A DNA stretch of 64,000 nt from Escherichia coli (GTDB lineage Bacteria; Pseudomonadota; Gammaproteobacteria; Enterobacterales; Enterobacteriaceae). The stretch lies in assembly GCF_036507355.1 (NCBI RefSeq), contig NZ_AP027877.1, one strand, 5' to 3'. This document shows, piece by piece, positions 9,844 to 56,271 of the stretch. The translations under genes were made by a program, and so were the position numbers. The stretch's first letter is position 1. The number at the start of each line of letters is the position of its first letter. A model generated the notes under the pieces. The model saw only the letters and a program-made list of their open reading frames with translations, was not told where the DNA came from and ran no database searches.

Positions 9844-10016
9844 GGTCAGTGCGTATTTGCAGCGCGACGTTATCAAAGGTGATCATCGTCGATTTACAAA
9901 AAATACACTTAGCGCCCAAAGGGTTTCGCTCCGTCACATCGAATGCCGATGTACGGTACTGTGAACCATGACAACATGGACAGCGGAAATGGAGATGTTG
10001 AGTAATAACGGCAACC

Positions 10017-10229
10017 TTAGAGCGTAACAACGTTCGCTGCCGCGGGGCCACGTTGCCCCTGCTCAATAGAAAATTCAACTTTCTGATTTTCGTTCAGCGT
10101 GCGGAATTCATTGCTCTGGATGGCGGTGAAATGGACGAAAACGTCTTTGCTGCCATCATCAGGAGTGATAAAGCCAAAACCTTTATCTGCGTTAAACCAT
10201 TTTACTAAACCAGTCATTTTATTAGACAT
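10017..10229 (-). CDS. cspG: Cold shock protein CspG
   Basis: 70-aa [26 protein letters not shown], classic CspA-family RNP motifs. Confidence 0.95.
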
Positions 10230-10514
10230 ATTTTACTTCCTTCATTTTGGGCCTTTCGGCAAACAGGGCTTTAATACAGAAACTACTTAGTGTTCAGGAG
10301 AGAGACTCAAAAGAAGGGGATAATGCCTGATAATGAGAACTGCTTTAGTAAACTACTTTGTATGCTGTCTGTCTTTCAAACCGACGCAGCTATTAACGCA
10401 TGATAATAGAGATTAAGCAAATTTTATTTTAGCCGTCCGGCGGTCTTAAATATCGCTGGCTTTATTTTATTAACCCCGTATAGTGCAGCGCAGTATTTTC
10501 AGTAAGGAATTTGT

Positions 10515-34394: not shown

Positions 34395-36446
34395 CGGTTT
34401 TCTCGCCACCGGCACATCCAGATTTTTCAGTATTTCCACAAAGGGAGAGGGATTCTCTTTGTTAAACAGTGCCCATACCCGATGGCGTGCCCGGGTCAGC
34501 GCCACGTACATTAACCGCCGTTCTTCAGCGTCCGGGAAATCCTCAACCGGTGGCAGTAGCGCCTCTTCCATAATCGACTCCCGCGCCGCAGCCGGAAAAC
34601 CATCACTTCCCTCCTGCAAGCCAACGATGATGACGTAATCCGCCTGTTGCCCTTTGCTGGCATGAATGGTCATAAAGTCGATTTGCAACTTCGGCCAGCG
34701 TGTTGCCGCTTTTTCCAGGCTGGCAGGCCTCATGTGATGGTAACGCGCCAGGATCAGAATGCGCTCTTCCGGTTTGGCATAACCAGAGAGCTTATCCAGC
34801 AAAGCGTCAAGTTGACTCTCATCCAATAACGTGACGGCTTTTTTGTCTCCATTGGTTAAGCTGTTTAGCGGCTTTTTCAGCTGGCCTGGGTTCTGCTGAA
34901 TAAACCGGTTTGCCACCTCACCGATACGACTGTTAAAACGGTAAGTCGTGTCTAAATCACAGCGATCGCCTTCACCAAAGTTTTCATGGAAAGCGGTGGT
35001 GAGCGACATTTGCGCACCGCTGAATCGGTAAATCGCCTGCCAGTCATCACCAACGGCGAACAACGTCGTCTGACTGTTTTGCTTGCGTAATGCCGCTAAC
35101 AACGCTGCCCGCTGCGGCGAGATATCCTGAAATTCATCAACCAGAATATGCTTCCACGGGCTGATAAAGCGACCTTTCTCCAGAATCACAATCGCCTGAT
35201 GAATAAGGCCCGAAAAATCGACAGCGTTTTCTGCCTTCAGCGCACCTTTCCAGGCTTTTAATAACGGGGCCATCAACTTGATACGTTTACTGAACAGATC
35301 GCGAATCTCTTCGGGTGCACTGGCAATCATTTCTGCCTGTGCACCACCGTGCATCCGCATCAGACTTACCCAACGATCGAGGCGTGAGGCAAGACGACGC
35401 TGTAATTTTTCATCATCCCAGAAGTTACCTTCTGGCACTGACCACTGCATTTCTTCCGTCAGCCATTGCCGCCAGCCCTTCGCCTGCGCTTTCTTTTCGC
35501 TGCATTGCTTGCGCCACTCAGCAATAAAGAGTTCATGACGGGCAGCGGTATCATTTTCCAGTTTGCTGACTATCGGAACTTTTTTGCTGCCCTGCTGAAT
35601 AATATGCAGCGCCAGCGCATGAAACGTGCGTGCGGTAATGTCTTCGGTATGTAGCCGTTCGCGAATACGCTCGTCCATCTCTTCAGCGGCTTTGCGACCA
35701 AACGCCAGCAATAAAATTTGCTCAGGGGACGCTTCACCACGCGCCAGCAACCAGCCTGCACGGGCCACCAGCACCGACGTTTTTCCGCTTCCTGCACCTG
35801 CCAGCACTAACAGAGAATGCTCGCCATTAACGACTGCCCGGGCCTGCGCCGGATTCAGCGGTGAAGACTCGACCTGGCGGAAAAAATCCGCATACTCGGT
35901 AAGCATGGCTTCGGTATACGCCTGGTTATGCTGCAACCGAGCGCTTTCAATATCTTTCAACCAGGCCTGACATTTACGCCACGCCTCACGGCAGTTATCG
36001 AATTCTTCCAGTCGGTTAACCGGCAACGGCAACGCCGACAAAGCCTGGCGGATTTGTTGCTGAACGCCAGAGGTTTGCTCACGCGTCAGCCATTTATTTT
36101 CTCCAGTGCGCGTGGCAATCAAATCCAGTTGCTGGCGTAAAACACCAGACGCAATTTCGCTCATCTCGCCACTCCACCGCCGCCAGTGAGCATCAAGATG
36201 ATGGTAAAAACGCTGCGTCTCGCCCCATTCGGTGCCGTGCAGACGCACCACTTTTTCGTCCGGCAGTACAAATTCCAGCTCGCCCCATACCAGACCGCGC
36301 TTACAGTGAATCGCCAGTAATTGATTGAAAGGAATAAGGTATTCGTGGCGATCGCCGGAGACTTTAATCCCGGCATTGAGGATCACCGCCCGATCGTAAG
36401 GGTGCTGTGCCAGACGTTTTCCAAGCGTTGTCGCTTTCAGTTCCAT
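34392..36446 (-). CDS. helD: DNA helicase IV
   Basis: ORF 34392..36539; recognised start MELKATTLGKRLAQHPYDRAV at 36446 (684 aa); Walker A GAGSGKT. Confidence 0.93.
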   Translation of the reverse strand: MELKATTLGKRLAQHPYDRAVILNAGIKVSGDRHEYLIPFNQLLAIHCKRGLVWGELEFVLPDEKVVRLHGTEWGETQRFYHHLDAHWRRWSGEMSEIASGVLRQQLDLIATRTGENKWLTREQTSGVQQQIRQALSALPLPVNRLEEFDNCREAWRKCQAWLKDIESARLQHNQAYTEAMLTEYADFFRQVESSPLNPAQARAVVNGEHSLLVLAGAGSGKTSVLVARAGWLLARGEASPEQILLLAFGRKAAEEMDERIRERLHTEDITARTFHALALHIIQQGSKKVPIVSKLENDTAARHELFIAEWRKQCSEKKAQAKGWRQWLTEEMQWSVPEGNFWDDEKLQRRLASRLDRWVSLMRMHGGAQAEMIASAPEEIRDLFSKRIKLMAPLLKAWKGALKAENAVDFSGLIHQAIVILEKGRFISPWKHILVDEFQDISPQRAALLAALRKQNSQTTLFAVGDDWQAIYRFSGAQMSLTTAFHENFGEGDRCDLDTTYRFNSRIGEVANRFIQQNPGQLKKPLNSLTNGDKKAVTLLDESQLDALLDKLSGYAKPEERILILARYHHMRPASLEKAATRWPKLQIDFMTIHASKGQQADYVIIVGLQEGSDGFPAAARESIMEEALLPPVEDFPDAEERRLMYVALTRARHRVWALFNKENPSPFVEILKNLDVPVARKP

Positions 36447-36568
36447 GACTCTGTAGATCCACACGAAATTATTTCTTATCAGTGTAACCGTCAGAGAAAA
36501 CGTGCTCCAGCCCAAAAAAACGTTACAATTGCCGCCCATTACTGAAAACCACAGTAAAGCGAGGTTTT

Positions 36569-37015
36569 ATGCGTACCGTTTTGAACATTCTGAACTTTGT
36601 GCTTGGCGGATTTGCCACCACTCTGGGCTGGCTGTTGGCGACTCTGGTCAGTATTGTGCTGATTTTTACCTTACCGCTGACACGATCCTGCTGGGAGATC
36701 ACTAAACTGTCTCTGGTGCCTTATGGCAATGAAGCTATTCATGTCGATGAACTGAACCCGGCTGGCAAAAATGTGCTGCTGAATACTGGCGGTACGGTAT
36801 TGAATATTTTCTGGCTGATTTTCTTTGGCTGGTGGTTATGCCTGATGCACATTGCAACGGGCATCGCACAATGTATTTCAATCATTGGCATTCCTGTCGG
36901 CATTGCGAACTTTAAAATTGCCGCTATTGCACTATGGCCGGTTGGTCGTCGCGTGGTATCGGTAGAAACAGCGCAAGCTGCGCGTGAAGCCAATGCACGT
37001 CGTCGTTTTGAATAA
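36569..37015 (+). CDS. yccF: Inner membrane protein YccF
   Basis: 148-aa membrane ORF. Confidence 0.92.
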   Translation: MRTVLNILNFVLGGFATTLGWLLATLVSIVLIFTLPLTRSCWEITKLSLVPYGNEAIHVDELNPAGKNVLLNTGGTVLNIFWLIFFGWWLCLMHIATGIAQCISIIGIPVGIANFKIAAIALWPVGRRVVSVETAQAAREANARRRFE

Positions 37016-37024
37016 TCCACTAAT

Positions 37025-39187
37025 ATGGCCTTTATGCTAAGTCCTTTGCTCAAACGCTATACATGGAACAGCGCCTGGCTGTATTACGCGCGTATTTTTA
37101 TTGCGCTTTGTGGAACCACAGCGTTTCCGTGGTGGCTGGGTGATGTAAAACTGACGATTCCGCTGACGCTGGGGATGGTGGCAGCGGCGCTGACCGATCT
37201 CGATGACCGACTGGCGGGACGTTTGCGTAACCTCATCATTACGCTGTTCTGCTTTTTTATCGCCTCGGCCTCAGTAGAATTGCTGTTTCCCTGGCCCTGG
37301 CTATTTGCGATTGGCTTAACGCTCTCTACCAGCGGCTTCATTTTGCTCGGCGGTCTGGGTCAACGCTATGCAACAATTGCCTTCGGTGCATTGCTGATCG
37401 CCATTTACACTATGTTGGGAACATCACTGTATGAGCACTGGTATCAGCAGCCGATGTATCTGCTGGCCGGTGCCGTCTGGTACAACGTCCTGACACTTAT
37501 TGGTCATCTGCTGTTCCCGGTCCGCCCGCTGCAGGACAACCTGGCGCGTTGCTATGAACAACTGGCGCGTTATCTTGAGCTCAAGTCGCGCATGTTTGAT
37601 CCTGATATTGAAGATGAAAGCCAGGCACCGCTGTACGATTTGGCTCTCGCCAACGGTCAGCTGATGGCGACATTGAATCAGACGAAACTCTCGCTGCTGA
37701 CCCGCTTACGTGGCGATCGTGGTCAACGGGGAACGCGTCGCACGCTGCATTATTACTTTGTCGCACAGGATATTCACGAGCGTGCCAGCTCTTCTCATAT
37801 TCAGTATCAAACATTGCGTGAACATTTTCGCCACAGCGACGTGCTGTTCCGTTTTCAGCGGCTGATGTCGATGCAGGGCCAGGCGTGCCAGCAACTGTCA
37901 CGCTGTATTTTGCTGCGTCAGCCTTATCAACATGATCCGCATTTTGAGCGCGCTTTTACGCATATTGATGCTGCCCTGGAGCGGATGCGCGATAACGGCG
38001 CGCCTGCCGATTTACTCAAAACACTGGGATTTTTGCTGAACAATTTACGCGCCATTGATGCCCAACTGGCAACAATTGAATCAGAACAGGCCCAGGCACT
38101 GCCCCATAATAATGACGAAAATGAGCTCGCTGATGACAGCCCGCACGGATTGAGTGATATCTGGCTGCGTCTTAGCCGTCACTTCACGCCGGAATCCGCC
38201 CTCTTCCGTCATGCGGTAAGAATGTCGCTGGTGTTGTGCTTCGGCTACGCCATCATTCAAATAACCGGAATGCATCACGGGTATTGGATCTTGCTGACAA
38301 GTTTGTTTGTCTGCCAGCCAAACTATAACGCCACGCGCCACCGCCTGAAGTTAAGGATTATTGGTACGCTGGTAGGTATCGCCATTGGCATTCCTGTGCT
38401 GTGGTTTGTGCCATCACTGGAAGGGCAGCTGGTGCTGCTGGTTATTACCGGCGTGCTCTTTTTTGCCTTCCGTAACGTGCAATACGCTCATGCAACGATG
38501 TTCATCACACTTTTGGTGCTACTGTGTTTTAACTTACTGGGTGAAGGTTTTGAAGTAGCGTTACCTCGCGTAATCGATACGCTGATTGGTTGTGCCATTG
38601 CGTGGGCGGCAGTGAGCTACATCTGGCCTGACTGGCAGTTTCGCAATCTGCCGCGCATGCTCGAACGCGCCACAGAGGCCAACTGTCGCTATCTCGATGC
38701 CATACTGGAGCAATACCATCAGGGGCGTGATAACCGTCTGGCGTATCGTATTGCCCGCCGCGATGCACACAACCGTGATGCTGAACTGGCGTCGGTGGTA
38801 TCAAATATGTCCAGCGAACCGAACGTTACCCCGCAAATTCGCGAAGCCGCGTTTCGGTTGCTGTGCCTTAACCATACGTTTACCAGCTATATCTCAGCCC
38901 TCGGTGCTCACCGGGAGCAGTTAACTAATCCTGAAATTCTGGCGTTTCTTGATGACGCAGTTTGCTATGTTGATGACGCGTTACATCATCAACCTGCTGA
39001 TGAAGAACGCGTCAATCAGGCATTAGCTGGCCTGAAACAGCGGATGCAGCAACTTGAACCACGGGCAGACAGCAAAGAACCTCTGGTCGTACAACAAGTT
39101 GGGTTATTGATTGCATTACTGCCTGAGATTGGTCGTCTGCAACGCCAGATTACTCAAGTTCCGCAGGAAACTCCTGTTTCGGCGTAA
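37025..39187 (+). CDS. yccS: Inner membrane protein YccS (FUSC-like, putative efflux/transport)
   Basis: 720-aa ORF with two blocks of TM helices; annotated start may be a few codons downstream. Confidence 0.88.
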   Translation: MAFMLSPLLKRYTWNSAWLYYARIFIALCGTTAFPWWLGDVKLTIPLTLGMVAAALTDLDDRLAGRLRNLIITLFCFFIASASVELLFPWPWLFAIGLTLSTSGFILLGGLGQRYATIAFGALLIAIYTMLGTSLYEHWYQQPMYLLAGAVWYNVLTLIGHLLFPVRPLQDNLARCYEQLARYLELKSRMFDPDIEDESQAPLYDLALANGQLMATLNQTKLSLLTRLRGDRGQRGTRRTLHYYFVAQDIHERASSSHIQYQTLREHFRHSDVLFRFQRLMSMQGQACQQLSRCILLRQPYQHDPHFERAFTHIDAALERMRDNGAPADLLKTLGFLLNNLRAIDAQLATIESEQAQALPHNNDENELADDSPHGLSDIWLRLSRHFTPESALFRHAVRMSLVLCFGYAIIQITGMHHGYWILLTSLFVCQPNYNATRHRLKLRIIGTLVGIAIGIPVLWFVPSLEGQLVLLVITGVLFFAFRNVQYAHATMFITLLVLLCFNLLGEGFEVALPRVIDTLIGCAIAWAAVSYIWPDWQFRNLPRMLERATEANCRYLDAILEQYHQGRDNRLAYRIARRDAHNRDAELASVVSNMSSEPNVTPQIREAAFRLLCLNHTFTSYISALGAHREQLTNPEILAFLDDAVCYVDDALHHQPADEERVNQALAGLKQRMQQLEPRADSKEPLVVQQVGLLIALLPEIGRLQRQITQVPQETPVSA

Positions 39188-39779
39188 GAGAGTCAGCCCA
39201 TTCTGCAAGCTCCTGGCGGCGTGCCACCGGGAGCGCAGCTTCATGAATGCCGATAATGGCACCTTCAAGCATAAACAGAATCTTTTCTGTCACCAGACTG
39301 TTTTGCTGCCGCAGTCGCAACCAACACATTTTTGCCCCAAGTATACGTAACGCCCGTACATCCTTAATCCCCACCTCCCCGAGAATCGCTTCCAGATGAA
39401 AAGACATATTGGGCAAATCTTTCAGTCTTTCCCGGGTATTGCGCGTGCTTTTCTCTTTCAGCGCTGCATCGAGAGAATATTTCGACAGACGCACCAGCTT
39501 CAGTTGATTTCGCCATAGACTTTCATCAACCCGATAGTAATTGAGGGTAACGGATCGGCCACACTTTTTATATGTCAGCCAGACAGGCGGATGTTTTACA
39601 CAGTACTGTGCACTTTGCTCACAAGCCCGAAGATACAACTCACCATCAGAAACCATCGCAAACACCGTGTCGTCAACGGTCAGGCTGTAACTGCCAAACA
39701 ATGATCGGTATTCAATTGTGCCCAACGTTGCCAGGTATTCTTGTGATTTATAGATCCGCTTATAGGAGAGGCTTTTCAT
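39150..39779 (-). CDS. sxy: Competence regulator Sxy (TfoX)
   Basis: 209-aa ORF MKSLSYKRIYKSQEYLATLGTIEYRSLFG; 3' end overlaps yccS 3' end by 38 bp. Confidence 0.92.
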   Translation of the reverse strand: MKSLSYKRIYKSQEYLATLGTIEYRSLFGSYSLTVDDTVFAMVSDGELYLRACEQSAQYCVKHPPVWLTYKKCGRSVTLNYYRVDESLWRNQLKLVRLSKYSLDAALKEKSTRNTRERLKDLPNMSFHLEAILGEVGIKDVRALRILGAKMCWLRLRQQNSLVTEKILFMLEGAIIGIHEAALPVARRQELAEWADSLTPKQEFPAELE

Positions 39780-39955
39780 AAAATTCCTTTTAAAATCATA
39801 ACATAAAAGAATGATTCACATTAACGGATCCGTTAACTACGAAAATAGGCAACTTATTCTTAAGGGGCAAGATTAATTTATGTTTTCCCGTCACCAACGA
39901 CAAAATTTGCGAGGCTCTTTCCGAAAATAGGGTTGATCTTTGTTGTCACTGGATG

Positions 39956-39975
39956 TACTGTATATCCATACAGTA
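39956..39975 (+). promoter_or_regulatory. LexA box (SOS operator) of sulA
   Basis: TACTGTATATCCATACAGTA, CTGT-N8-ACAG palindrome, 22 bp upstream of sulA start. Confidence 0.9.
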
Positions 39976-39997
39976 ACTCACAGGGGCTGGATTGATT

Positions 39998-40507
39998 ATG
40001 TACACTTCAGGCTATGCACATCGTTCTTCGTCGTTCTCATCCGCAGCAAGTAAAATTGCGCGTGTCTCTACGGAAAACACTACAGCCGGGCTTATCAGTG
40101 AAGTTGTCTATCGCGAAGATCAGCCCATGATGACGCAACTTCTACTGTTGCCATTGTTACAGCAACTCGGTCAGCAATCGCGCTGGCAACTCTGGTTAAC
40201 ACCGCAACAAAAACTGAGTCGGGAATGGGTTCAGGCATCTGGGCTACCCTTAACGAAAGTAATGCAGATTAGCCAGCTCCCCCCTTGCCACACTGTGGAG
40301 TCAATGGTTCGCGCTTTACGCACGGGCAATTACAGTGTGGTGATCGGTTGGTTGGCAGATGATTTGACTGAAGAAGAGCATGCTGAACTTGTTGATGCGG
40401 CAAATGAAGGTAACGCTATGGGGTTTATTATGCGTCCGGTAAGCGCATCCTCTCACGCAACGAGACAACTTTCCGGGCTAAAAATTCACTCTAATTTGTA
40501 TCATTAA
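39998..40507 (+). CDS. sulA: SOS cell division inhibitor SulA
   Basis: ORF 39992..40507; recognised start [15 protein letters not shown] at 39998 (169 aa). Confidence 0.94.
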
Positions 40508-44458: not shown

Positions 44459-44977
44459 ATGGTAGATAAACGCGAATCCTATACAAAAGAAGACCTTCTT
44501 GCCTCTGGTCGCGGTGAACTGTTTGGCGCTAAAGGCCCGCAATTGCCAGCACCGAACATGCTGATGATGGACCGTGTGGTCAAAATGACCGAAACGGGTG
44601 GTAACTTCGACAAAGGGTATGTTGAAGCAGAACTGGATATCAATCCGGATCTGTGGTTCTTCGGATGCCACTTTATTGGCGATCCGGTTATGCCGGGATG
44701 CCTGGGCCTGGACGCAATGTGGCAGCTGGTAGGGTTCTACCTCGGCTGGCTGGGCGGCGAAGGTAAAGGCCGCGCGCTGGGCGTTGGCGAAGTGAAATTC
44801 ACTGGTCAGGTACTGCCGACAGCGAAAAAAGTGACCTACCGTATTCACTTTAAACGCATTGTTAACCGTCGTCTGATTATGGGCCTGGCGGATGGCGAAG
44901 TGCTGGTTGATGGTCGTTTGATCTATACCGCCAGCGACCTGAAAGTCGGTCTGTTCCAGGATACGTCTGCCTTCTGA
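44459..44977 (+). CDS. fabA: 3-hydroxydecanoyl-ACP dehydratase/isomerase FabA
   Basis: ORF 44261..44977 is over-extended; recognised start [23 protein letters not shown] at 44459 (172 aa). Confidence 0.94.
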
Positions 44978-45004
44978 TTATAATCAGACAGAGTATCAAA
45001 AGGC

Positions 45005-45035
45005 GAAACCTCCGCAATGCGGAGGTTTCTTTTTA
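45005..45035. terminator. Bidirectional terminator between fabA and rmf
   Basis: Hairpin GAAACCTCCGCAATGCGGAGGTTTC followed by TTTTT. Confidence 0.85.
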
Positions 45036-45046
45036 AAGAGACAGAA

Positions 45047-45214
45047 TCAGGCCATTACTACCCTGTCCGCCATGGCTTCTCGCCAGCCTCCCAGCCATTG
45101 TGACCTTTGATTCAGCGTCTGATAGGGACACATTTCTTTTGAGCGTCCGGCGATGCCGGCCTGATAACCACGTTGATGTGCCCGTTCCAGGCGATCTCGT
45201 TTTTGTCTCTTCAT
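45047..45214 (-). CDS. rmf: Ribosome modulation factor (55 aa)
   Basis: Reverse translation MKRQKRDRLERAHQRGYQAGIAGRSKEMCPYQTLNQRSQWLGGWREAMADRVVMA; absent from ORF track (below size cutoff). Confidence 0.9.
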   Translation of the reverse strand: MKRQKRDRLERAHQRGYQAGIAGRSKEMCPYQTLNQRSQWLGGWREAMADRVVMA

Positions 45215-45469
45215 GCCTCGTTTCCCTCATACTGGTTTCTGGTGGAAAAGAAAACAGTGATTACTAAATGTGCAATCACAGTTAAGCAATACCCCGAATC
45301 ATAACTGCCGTCAATGCGCAAAATTCACGCCACTGTCATATTTGTGAGCTACACGGGCATGTCGGTTGTACAAAAAATGTGAAGAGGAACAAATTTTTCC
45401 GCACGTTAGAAACAAAAAAACCGCCTCAGGCAACATACCGGAGACGGTTATATTTACAAATCTTTACAA

Positions 45470-46033
45470 TTAAGGTAGACGCTTTATCTCTTGTGCAATA
45501 GAAGCGGCTTCCTGACTCCAGACACCGGCCAGCACTTTAACCATCTCATCGTAACCATCCTGAGTTTGCACTCCTTCCAGACGGAACGGACGTTTGATCA
45601 GTTGTCCCTGGTGGTTCAACAGCCACTCACCACTGACAATGACCTTGCCATCATAGCGACCGTTAAACTCCGTTACGGTAACATTGAGCGTGTCCTGGGC
45701 GCTTCCCAGAGGCTGGGAGGCAACCACCCAGCCGGGCAGTTGCGTGCTCAGGTTGGCTACCAGGGTGTTGCGCAACTGTTGATCCAACGGGCTGGCCCAC
45801 AAGTTGTTGTTGGCAATCACATACTTCACATCACTGGTTTGATAAACCACACCATTCCCCGCCAGATAGTCAGGTACAGCGACCTGCTCTACCCATAACA
45901 GGCGATTGCCCTGGCTGGCGGTACTTTGTGTACCGCTCTGCACCACAGGTAACTGGTAATAGTTTTTATTAATTTCGCCGGAGCTGCATCCGGCCAGCCA
46001 CAGTGCTGCAATCGTCACTAGCCACTTTTTCAT
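45470..46033 (-). CDS. pqiC: Lipoprotein PqiC (YmbA)
   Basis: 187-aa ORF with lipobox LWLAGC; 4-bp overlap with pqiB. Confidence 0.9.
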   Translation of the reverse strand: MKKWLVTIAALWLAGCSSGEINKNYYQLPVVQSGTQSTASQGNRLLWVEQVAVPDYLAGNGVVYQTSDVKYVIANNNLWASPLDQQLRNTLVANLSTQLPGWVVASQPLGSAQDTLNVTVTEFNGRYDGKVIVSGEWLLNHQGQLIKRPFRLEGVQTQDGYDEMVKVLAGVWSQEAASIAQEIKRLP

Positions 46034-47670
46034 TGTTTCGCCCTCTTCGGCTCTGGATCTTTTTTGTCCTTCGCTTCAAATACCAGCGCGTTACTCTTCT
46101 CATTGAGCGTTTTCAGCACCGGTTGCAGTTCTCGCAACACCTGATCAAGGCGCTGCATATCCGCCACCATCTTGTTGTAGGCTGCGGAGCCGGGCTGGAA
46201 GCCCTGCATGCTGCGATTCAATTCACGCAACGTTGACTGCATATCCGTCGGCAACTGCTGCATCGACTGGCTGGCGAGGATCTTGTTCATGCTATCCAGC
46301 GTCATTTGCAGGTTTTTCATTGTGCGCTGACTTTCAGAAAGCGTACTGGTTGCCTGTTCAATCATCGGATTCAATGGCAGTTTGTTGATCTTATCCAACG
46401 CTTCCATCAGTCGTTGCTGGATTTGCGCCAGGCCGCCGCTAACGGTCGGGATAATCTGATAACCATTAAATTCACGAATACCGGTTATTGCAGGCGTATT
46501 TGGATAGAAATCGAGATCAACATACAGTGCGCCAGTGACCAGGTTTCCGGTTTTCAGCGATCCGCGTAAACCACGTTTCAACAATTCGCCAAGGTGCTCA
46601 ACAACATCCGCATTTTCGCCAAGCTGCATTTTCAGCCGCTCTGGCTCGATACGAATCAGCACCGGAATACGGTAATCATCGTTAAATGTCTGACGCATAT
46701 TCGGCGCAAAGAATGGCACTTTGCTTACGGTACCGAGGCGAATACCCCGGAATTCTACCGGAGCTCCCGGTTGCAGACCGCGTACCGAATCTTTAAAGAA
46801 CATCAGATAATCAATGTGATCGGTGTACAACGAATCCTGAATGCTCTTCTGATCATCATACAAAACGAAAGCTGTTTTCGGTGCCACTGGCTGCCCTAAA
46901 TCCAGACCTTCCGGCACATCAAAGCTGACACCGCCACTCAGCAGCGTTGTCAATGAGCCCATCTCCACACGCATTCCCGCTGACGTCAGATCAACCGCAA
47001 TGCCACTATCTTTCCAGAAGCGAACATTGCTGGTCACCAGTCGGTCATAAGGTGCATTGATGAACAGTTGATAACTGATATTGCGTTTTTGCGTATCGAA
47101 GGTGCTGGTTTCAACCGAACCTACCCGATAGCCACGGAACAGCACCGGATCTCCTGGCGAGAGCTGCCCGGCTTTTTTGCTATCGAGAATCACACGGATA
47201 CCTTTCGCATCAGGCGGGGCCAACGGTGGCGAGTCCAGCAAATCGTATTTATCCATTTTGCTGCCTTTCGCGCCTGGCTGCAGTTCGATATAAACCCCAG
47301 ACAGCAGGGTTCCCAGACCGCTAATCCCTTCTCGACCAATCTGCGGTTTCACCACCCAAAAGACGGTATCTTTATGCAGCAATTTTTCCATACCGGAATT
47401 CAGCCGCGCTTTGATTTCAACGTGTGTCAAATCATCAGCCAGTGTGGCGCTTTCAACCACGCCGACGTCAACGCTACGGCTTTTAATGGTGGTTTTGCCA
47501 CCTTCAATTCCTTCCGCATTCGCGGTGATCAGGGTCACTTCCGGTCCCTGATGGCTGTAATGATAAAAAAGAACCCAGGCCCCAATGAGCGCCGTGACGA
47601 TAGGAAATATCCACACGGGAGACCAGTTCTTCACTTTCTGGATTTTGGCTTCCCCATTATTAGATTCCAT
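46030..47670 (-). CDS. pqiB: MCE-domain intermembrane transport protein PqiB
   Basis: ORF 46030..47730; recognised start MESNNGEAKIQKVKNWSPVWIFPIV at 47670 (546 aa). Confidence 0.9.
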   Translation of the reverse strand: MESNNGEAKIQKVKNWSPVWIFPIVTALIGAWVLFYHYSHQGPEVTLITANAEGIEGGKTTIKSRSVDVGVVESATLADDLTHVEIKARLNSGMEKLLHKDTVFWVVKPQIGREGISGLGTLLSGVYIELQPGAKGSKMDKYDLLDSPPLAPPDAKGIRVILDSKKAGQLSPGDPVLFRGYRVGSVETSTFDTQKRNISYQLFINAPYDRLVTSNVRFWKDSGIAVDLTSAGMRVEMGSLTTLLSGGVSFDVPEGLDLGQPVAPKTAFVLYDDQKSIQDSLYTDHIDYLMFFKDSVRGLQPGAPVEFRGIRLGTVSKVPFFAPNMRQTFNDDYRIPVLIRIEPERLKMQLGENADVVEHLGELLKRGLRGSLKTGNLVTGALYVDLDFYPNTPAITGIREFNGYQIIPTVSGGLAQIQQRLMEALDKINKLPLNPMIEQATSTLSESQRTMKNLQMTLDSMNKILASQSMQQLPTDMQSTLRELNRSMQGFQPGSAAYNKMVADMQRLDQVLRELQPVLKTLNEKSNALVFEAKDKKDPEPKRAKQ

Positions 47671-47674
47671 ACTG

Positions 47675-48928
47675 TCAGGACTCCTCATGTTCTGATTCAG
47701 GTTGACGATCCCACGACAAACGCGGGTCAAACGTCATAGCAGAAAACATTGTCATTATGACGACTAAAGCAAACATTAATGCACCCATTGCCGGATAAAT
47801 ACTCATTAAACCTCCCATACGCACCAGCGCCGAGAGCACCGCGATAACGAAAACGTCAATCATCGACCAGCGGCCTACAAACTCAACAACTTCATAAATC
47901 AAATGCATTCTTTCACTGTCGCGCTTGCCATGCCCTTTGGCATCCCAACACAGCCACGCGATGGCGATCATCTTTAACGTTGGCACCATAATACTGGCCA
48001 GAAAGATCACCGCAGCGACGGGATAAGAGCCTTCGCTCCATAACAGAATGACCCCAGCGAGAATCGTCGATGGCATCTTCGAGCCTAATAAATCCGTCAC
48101 CATGATGGGCAAAATATTAGCCGGAAGATACAGCATGATGGACGTAACAAGCAGCGCGAGTGTCCATTGCAGGCTGTTTCTACGTCGAACGTACCCTTTA
48201 GTACCACAGCGCGGGCACACGGGTTCATCAGCAGGAAGGATTGCCGTACAACAGGAGCACGAACGTAGCCCCTGACGTATCCCCGTGACGCCTGGTTTTA
48301 GCGGCTGGCGCAGTTCTGGCATCGGGGCGATATCGTCCCATAACCAGCGACGATCAACGCACTGAAAAGCACGCAGTTGCAGGACACAAAATAAACACCA
48401 GGGGAGAAAGCTGCTGCCTACGCCAATGCTGCCGTAAGCCATCAGTTTAACGAAACTGACCAGCACACCCGCGAGGAAAATCTCCGCCATTCCCCAGGTT
48501 TTGAGTTGAAAAAGCACCCGTGCCAGTTGCTCTTTTAAACGGACCGGTAATTCCGCGCGATTCACCAGTAACAGAATGGTTATCAGACAAAACGCGGGAA
48601 CCAGTTGCACAAACAACAGGAAAAAGGTGCCGAGGCTGGCGTAGTCCTCAGAAAAAAGCACGCCGGGAATTTCCAGTAATGTAATTTCACTGGTAACTCC
48701 TGCAACGTTCATATTCACAAAAGGAAACAAGTTGGACAGCAACAGCATGAACAGTGCAGCCAACGCATAGGCCGTAGGACGCTGCCGGGGGGCATCCCAC
48801 GCCACGGTTAACGTTGTGCCACACCGGGGACATGCCGCTTTCTGACCATGCTCAAGGCGCGGTAACGCCACCAGCATGTCACACTGCGAGCATAGGATGT
48901 GCTTCGCGGCATGATGATGTTCGCACAT
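47675..48928 (-). CDS. pqiA: Paraquat-inducible inner membrane protein PqiA
   Basis: 417-aa ORF with CxxC zinc-ribbon-like motifs and TM helices. Confidence 0.92.
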   Translation of the reverse strand: MCEHHHAAKHILCSQCDMLVALPRLEHGQKAACPRCGTTLTVAWDAPRQRPTAYALAALFMLLLSNLFPFVNMNVAGVTSEITLLEIPGVLFSEDYASLGTFFLLFVQLVPAFCLITILLLVNRAELPVRLKEQLARVLFQLKTWGMAEIFLAGVLVSFVKLMAYGSIGVGSSFLPWCLFCVLQLRAFQCVDRRWLWDDIAPMPELRQPLKPGVTGIRQGLRSCSCCTAILPADEPVCPRCGTKGYVRRRNSLQWTLALLVTSIMLYLPANILPIMVTDLLGSKMPSTILAGVILLWSEGSYPVAAVIFLASIMVPTLKMIAIAWLCWDAKGHGKRDSERMHLIYEVVEFVGRWSMIDVFVIAVLSALVRMGGLMSIYPAMGALMFALVVIMTMFSAMTFDPRLSWDRQPESEHEES

Positions 48929-55150: not shown

Positions 55151-56161
55151 TTAGATATGGGTAACGATTTCTTTAATCAGCGGCGGACCTTTAAAAATAA
55201 AACCAGAATAAATTTGCACCAGTGAGGCACCCGCAGCAATCTTTTCACGCGCAGCGATAACCGAGTCGATGCCGCCAACACCGATGATCGGTAAGCGACC
55301 GTTTAATTCCAGTGACAAGCGGCGAATAATTTCGGTGCTTTTTAACTGAAGCGGACGACCACTTAAGCCACCGGTTTGATCGCAATTTTTCATTCCCTGA
55401 ACCAGAGAACGATCGAGTGTGGTATTGGTTGCAATAACGCCATCAATATTATGGCGAACTAAACTATCGGCAACCTGGATCAATTCTTCTTCAGAAAGAT
55501 CCGGCGCGATCTTCACTGCGATCGGCACATATTTATGGTGCATCGCTTGCAAATCATTTTGTTTATTTTTAATCGCAGTTAAGAGATCATCCAGCGCTTC
55601 ACCATATTGCAGTGTGCGTAATCCTGGGGTATTTGGCGATGAAATATTGATGGCGATATATCCCGCATAGGCATAGATTTTTTCCATACAAATCAGATAG
55701 TCATCTTTGCCCTGCTCTACTGGCGTATCTTTATTTTTGCCGATGTTAATACCCAGGACGCCGTCATAATGGGCTTTTTTTACGTTCTCTACGAGGTTAT
55801 CAACGCCAAGATTATTAAAGCCCATACGGTTGATCAAACCTTCGGCATCTACCAGACGAAAGAGACGCGGCTTGTCATTACCTGGCTGTGGACGTGGCGT
55901 GACGGTACCGATCTCTATCGATCCAAATCCCATCGCGCCTAACGCATCAATGCACTCCCCGTCTTTGTCAAGACCGGCTGCCAGACCAAGCGGATTTTTA
56001 AACGTCAGGCCCATGCAGTTAACAGGTTTTGCAGGCACTTTCTGCCGCACCAGTGCTTCAAACGGTGTTCCGGTAATGCGGCGTAATTGCTGAAAAGTAA
56101 ATTCATGAGCGCGCTCTGGATCGAGCTGGAAAAGGGCTTTACGAACGAAGGGGTAGTACAT
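55151..56161 (-). CDS. pyrD: Dihydroorotate dehydrogenase (quinone)
   Basis: ORF 55151..56188; recognised start [21 protein letters not shown] at 56161 (336 aa). Confidence 0.95.
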
Positions 56162-56271
56162 GAACTCTCCTGGATTCCCGGTGTGCAAACCGGGGGCGTA
56201 TTATGTGCGAGTTCGGACCAAAAGGGAATTGACCTGCGGCAAAAAAAACGCAAACGTTTTCCGAACCTGTT

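Follow-up and report, generated by a model that had tools for sequence, protein, structure and literature searches.

The rmf locus and its surroundings

The window, by which we mean the whole stretch of 64,000 nucleotides of Escherichia coli DNA that was analysed, carries on its minus strand a short gene that is overlapped by a longer open reading frame (ORF) in another frame. Reading frames and neighbouring genes are as follows.

44459 to 44977, plus strand: fabA, convergent with rmf and downstream of it
45033 to 45230, minus strand: 65-aa shadow ORF, not a gene; same strand as rmf, other frame, start 16 nt upstream
45047 to 45214, minus strand: rmf coding sequence, 55 codons plus TGA (ATG at 45214..45212, stop at 45049..45047), from the translation, profile matches and RefSeq
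45470 to 46033, minus strand: pqiC, upstream of rmf and co-oriented

At its default threshold of at least 60 aa, the ORF list for the interval 44980..45470 holds only the 65-aa ORF (45033..45230, minus strand) and pqiC, and at a threshold of 30 aa it gains the 55-aa ORF at 45047..45214 on the minus strand. The initial annotation had stated that rmf lies between fabA and pqiC and is missing from the ORF track, and it was right on both counts: the position agrees with the ORFs of the window and with the RefSeq annotation, and the gene was missed solely because its 55 residues fall short of the 60-residue cut-off. A 55-codon ORF is by itself unremarkable, given that there are 48 ORFs of 30 aa or longer overlapping the 4.5-kb stretch around it. 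A fixed 60-residue cut-off nonetheless conceals real small genes, whose place can be taken by a longer out-of-frame shadow ORF, and gaps of 200-500 bp that look intergenic between annotated genes therefore merit a check against small-protein families.

Elsewhere in the window the genes are arranged as in E. coli K-12, running from torS via gfc/etk, hya/app, tRNA-Ser, yccA, ompA and matP to ycbZ, fabA, rmf, pqiCBA, uup, rlmKL, pyrD and the elf genes. The tRNA-Ser gene (anticodon TGA) occupies 29205-29292 on the plus strand. Directly beside this tRNA gene, E. coli O145 RM9872 has a prophage with integrase, exonuclease and dicB (positions 36242-40331 of locus L004); the window has the K-12-like hya/app/gfc/torS region there instead, and its attachment site is thus unoccupied. 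Two RNA elements that are expected at these places in an E. coli chromosome gave Rfam matches at gathering level, both on the minus strand: a cspA-type thermoregulator 5' UTR (9963-10385, 158.8 bits) and a PyrD leader (56156-56229, 97.9 bits). The mechanical ORF list also gives pqiB a TTG start and 566 aa (46030-47730, minus strand). The RefSeq version of that gene measures 1641 nt (546 aa) and overlaps the start of pqiC by 4 nt, the listed version being an ordinary over-extension of the start codon.

The 55-codon frame encodes ribosome modulation factor

Translation of the minus strand from 45214 to 45047 gave 55 uninterrupted codons followed by a TGA stop, and the product, MKRQKRDRLERAHQRGYQAGIAGRSKEMCPYQTLNQRSQWLGGWREAMADRVVMA, matches letter for letter the Rmf protein that had been proposed for this interval. 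It scored 79.6 bits against the Pfam model PF04957 (RMF; cut-off 27.9, E = 1.7e-22) and 92.1 bits against the NCBIfam equivalog NF011162, "ribosome modulation factor" (cut-off 40, E = 1.4e-26). Comparison with solved structures showed 100% identity over all 55 residues, end to end, to the chains named Ribosome modulation factor in PDB entries 6H4N, 6H58, 9IOT and 4V8G, and this exact protein has therefore already been seen bound to ribosomes. Through the same identity the product has the characteristics of RMF, a small basic protein of ~55 residues with a two-helix fold. The family matches and the full identity to a solved chain place the gene far beyond chance. At the same position RefSeq annotates rmf (WP_000828648.1, 168 nt).

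Mutagenesis has shown that R3, K5 and R11 are needed for ribosome binding and G23 and R45 for dimerisation (PMC8778775, PMC8126665), and all five residues are present in the translation of the window's gene.

Conservation within E. coli and beyond

Of 5426 complete E. coli genomes, 5425 contain the 601-bp sequence around the ORF that served as query, always at 95% identity or more, and in every E. coli record among the matches listed rmf, fabA and pqiC are annotated under the match. In the strains ET350, K-12 and O145 RM9872, RefSeq places rmf between a convergent fabA and a co-oriented upstream pqiC, as in the window. Over the 331 bp of the rmf locus, 5415 of the 5425 E. coli records are at least 99% identical to the window, the coding sequence being essentially invariant within the species, and between 45000 and 45330 (331 bp) the window agrees with O145 RM9872 at every base (100% identity). 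An alignment of 931 bp with K-12 showed the rmf coding sequence, its leader and its terminator to be identical at the nucleotide level, and yielded four differences, one of them within fabA (44918) and three intergenic (45294, 45411 and 45467).

Some copies depart from this picture. On replicons recorded as plasmids the fabA-rmf-pqiC stretch occurs four times, and the locus is missing from one of the 5426 E. coli genomes. E. coli ET245 (NZ_CP100978.1; positions 417-578 of locus L003) has an in-frame 6-nt deletion in rmf, at about window positions 45149-45160, which leaves a protein of 53 aa (...RGYQGAGRSK...). The change affects A19-G20-I21, directly ahead of G23, a residue reported as necessary for dimerisation, and this allele may be functionally impaired.

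Because the coding sequence is essentially invariant, polymorphism within E. coli is useless as a test of the reading frame, and we therefore scanned the genomes of other species. Species-representative genomes were searched with a degenerate back-translation of WLGGWREAM, which returned 120 loci; all 119 with a readable frame encode an RMF of the MKRQKRD/MRRQKRD type. For the frame test we took the 59 Enterobacterales loci that have a 55-codon gene in the same register, reduced them to 52 unique coding sequences and excluded codons 40-48, which the search pattern keeps constant. On positions 1, 2 and 3 of the rmf codons there were 178, 135 and 660 differences from the window, respectively, and variable sites were distributed as 18, 15 and 39, out of 46 each. 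This excess at the third position indicates that purifying selection acts in the rmf frame.

Of the 98 loci from other species with enough flanking sequence, 79 have a convergent fabA no more than 600 bp downstream of rmf, Alteromonadales included, and pqiC lies upstream in 58 of 96 loci, all of them Enterobacterales. In Serratia spp. (loci L048, L072, L073 and L081) the convergent fabA is found downstream of rmf but ~2-3.3 kb away, with something inserted between the two genes. Thalassotalea eurytherma (L022 and L023) and T. loyana (L074 and L075) each have two rmf paralogues on different contigs, only L022 and L075 of which adjoin a convergent fabA.

Transcription and translation signals

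The elements around the rmf coding sequence that bear on its expression are as follows.

45005 to 45029, both strands: predicted bidirectional intrinsic-terminator hairpin between the rmf and fabA stops; 11-bp stem with 7 G-C pairs, 3-nt loop, T-runs on both strands
45215 to 45231, minus strand: translation-initiation leader TATGAGGGAAACGAGGC, the 17 nt before the rmf ATG, with two Shine-Dalgarno-like motifs
45219 to 45216, minus strand: SD2, GAGG, ending at -2 from the rmf start
45228 to 45225, minus strand: SD1, GAGG, ending at -11 from the rmf start
45232 to 45272, minus strand: rest of the 5' untranslated leader, placed from the literature, up to the published start at -58
45309 to 45314, minus strand: TTGACG, a -35-like hexamer in the pqiC-rmf spacer; TTGAC (45314..45310) is invariant in 58 loci (MAFFT)
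45420 to 45434, minus strand: terminator-like hairpin followed by T7, just past the pqiC stop, from the terminator scan

According to PMC6134199, the pqiC-rmf spacer is 256 bp long and has just one RpoD promoter, at -58 relative to the initiation codon; in the window the spacer measures 255 bp, and the published -58 corresponds to ~45272. This promoter is repressed by ArcA and stimulated by McbR, RcdA, SdiA, SlyA, cAMP-CRP and ppGpp (PMC6134199, PMC8778775). Scanning 44900..45520 for consensus sigma-70 promoters returned 0 sites (0.7 expected), a result that fits an activator- and ppGpp-dependent promoter and is not positive evidence for one. Judged from the letters, TTGACG could plausibly be the -35 element of the rmf promoter: with a 17-bp spacer it pairs with TATTGC (45291..45286), and the start predicted from this pair (45277-45279) lies 5-7 nt from the published one at ~45272. 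A search for CRP boxes (TGTGA-N6-TCACA, at most 2 mismatches) gave 17 matches in the window, where chance alone would give 28, and upstream of rmf a single weak site (45378..45393) that is not convincing.

The hairpin at 45005..45029 was called as a terminator on both strands, with folding energies of -20.2 and -19.6 kcal/mol (z = -4.8 and -4.9) and none of 200 shuffled sequences as stable, and it is the predicted terminator common to the convergent rmf and fabA. At the other end, the hairpin at 45420..45434 together with the published rmf-specific promoter suggests that rmf forms a transcription unit of its own.

The 17-nt block in front of the rmf ATG is almost invariant in the MAFFT alignment of 58 Enterobacterales loci and far more conserved than the remaining leader. 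In the published description of the rmf mRNA, the AUG is preceded at 11 nt by SD1 and at 2 nt by SD2, and the distant SD1 renders RMF synthesis responsive to polyamines (PMC7177335); the positions of both motifs in the window agree with this description. The 5' leader, folded over -58..-1 and over -41..+3, was no stabler than shuffled sequence (z = 0.06 and -0.57, respectively); the published model is a bulged hairpin.

Alternative readings of the locus

The longer overlapping frame could in principle be the real gene, in place of rmf or beside it as an overlapping protein in an alternative frame. It exceeds rmf in length, its ATG is kept in all 59 related Enterobacterales loci, and this ATG falls inside the published rmf transcript, which starts at -58. 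The two frames share a strand but differ in phase, since their starts lie 16 nt apart and 16 mod 3 = 1. What is conserved at the upstream ATG, however, can be accounted for by its neighbour: the codon (45230..45228) comprises the two bases before SD1 and the first G of SD1, and it is kept in 59 of 59 loci because it abuts this conserved motif of the invariant leader. Ahead of it there is no Shine-Dalgarno motif (CCACCAGAAACCAGT-ATG). The 65-aa product found no match in Pfam or NCBIfam, it is annotated in none of the RefSeq records inspected, and its frame is interrupted in 33 of the 59 loci by one or more internal stops, whose places vary. Moreover, the most variable sites of the alignment (660 differences, against 178 and 135) fall on the first codon position of this frame, which is the wrong pattern for coding. 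Codon usage was scored as log-odds trained on the 26 long ORFs of the window, for which in-frame 55-codon chunks average +20.5 +/- 8.5 bits. The 65-aa ORF scored -17.05 bits, below every in-frame chunk of the training genes, and rmf scored -1.25 bits, which is atypical of long genes and above 98.5% of off-frame chunks; the measure thus counts against the 65-aa ORF, yet would not on its own call rmf a gene, the usage of rmf being atypical. The lack of a family match, the internal stops and the variable first positions together make the 65-aa ORF a shadow ORF, which is how the initial annotation had described it, and the chance that it is a real gene is very small. We also regard it as very improbable, if slightly less so, that the upstream AUG in the other frame (45230..45228, 16 nt before rmf begins) serves as a decoy or regulatory upstream start competing with initiation at rmf. 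If it did, the gene would be under a further level of control, besides the known one by polyamines and structure, and the 65-aa product would be irrelevant to this role, as its frame is not conserved.

The gene might, alternatively, be rmf by descent but silent or defective in this strain, for instance through a substitution in the promoter region. Position 45294, a G in the window and a C in K-12, falls in the interval that separates TTGACG, the -35-like hexamer, from the published start site, and the differences at 45411 and 45467 are intergenic too. Against this, the coding sequence, leader and terminator are the same as in K-12; O145 RM9872 carries the same allele at 45294, within 331 bp that are 100% identical, which makes it a natural allele in circulation; and 45294 is a non-conserved column in the cross-species alignment. 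We give a silent or defective allele next to no weight. The interval 45047..45214 on the minus strand is, with near certainty, the chromosomal rmf of E. coli, encoding the 55-residue ribosome modulation factor and overlapped by a non-coding shadow of 65 aa.

Proposed function

In what follows, the regulation and the ribosome-binding mechanism are carried over from the literature on the identical protein, the ORF, its identity, context, conservation and terminator having come from the present analysis. RMF would be made on entry into stationary phase or upon starvation (PMC8778775). The spacer between pqiC and rmf would supply its sigma-70 promoter, which ppGpp, cAMP-CRP and a number of stress regulators would stimulate, and translation would proceed from an unusual leader with a distant, polyamine-responsive Shine-Dalgarno sequence. 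The transcript persists for an unusually long time, its half-life being cited as ~24 min in PMC8778775. Once bound, RMF is expected to change the conformation of the 30S subunit such that two 70S ribosomes pair, and HPF would then mature this pair into the inactive 100S dimer, in which ribosomes would be preserved until nutrients return (PMC8778775, PMC8126665). The gene of this partner, hpf, lies outside the window.

Comparison with known systems

The rmf gene of the window is an ordinary, already described gene with nothing novel about it, characterised genetically, biochemically and structurally for decades. With its counterpart in E. coli K-12 (b0953, WP_000828648.1) it shares the same 55 residues, the coding DNA, the fabA and pqiC neighbours, the terminator and the SD1/SD2 leader, and in the intergenic DNA the two loci differ only by the three single bases at 45294, 45411 and 45467. 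The RMF proteins of other gammaproteobacteria (PF04957; for example that of Vibrio parahaemolyticus, PDB 2JRM) have the MKRQKRD...GYQAG...CPY...WLGGWRE framework in common with it, whereas C-terminal tails and lengths vary between orders and the upstream pqiC is confined to Enterobacterales.

Membership of the CrpP family or of the phage Rmf-like proteins was considered and rejected, the scores for NF033696 (19.8 against 55), NF041887 (24.1 against 40) and NF041856 (13.4 against 35) all lying below the cut-off. The subfamily model NF041886 (Rmf/CrpP) is matched by the window's protein at 51.1 bits against a cut-off of 28. With CrpP and the phage Rmf-like proteins (NF033696, NF041887) the protein has the Rmf/CrpP fold in common, and a weak similarity over the Rmf/CrpP core; unlike theirs, the rmf locus of the window is chromosomal and lies on neither an ICE nor a phage.
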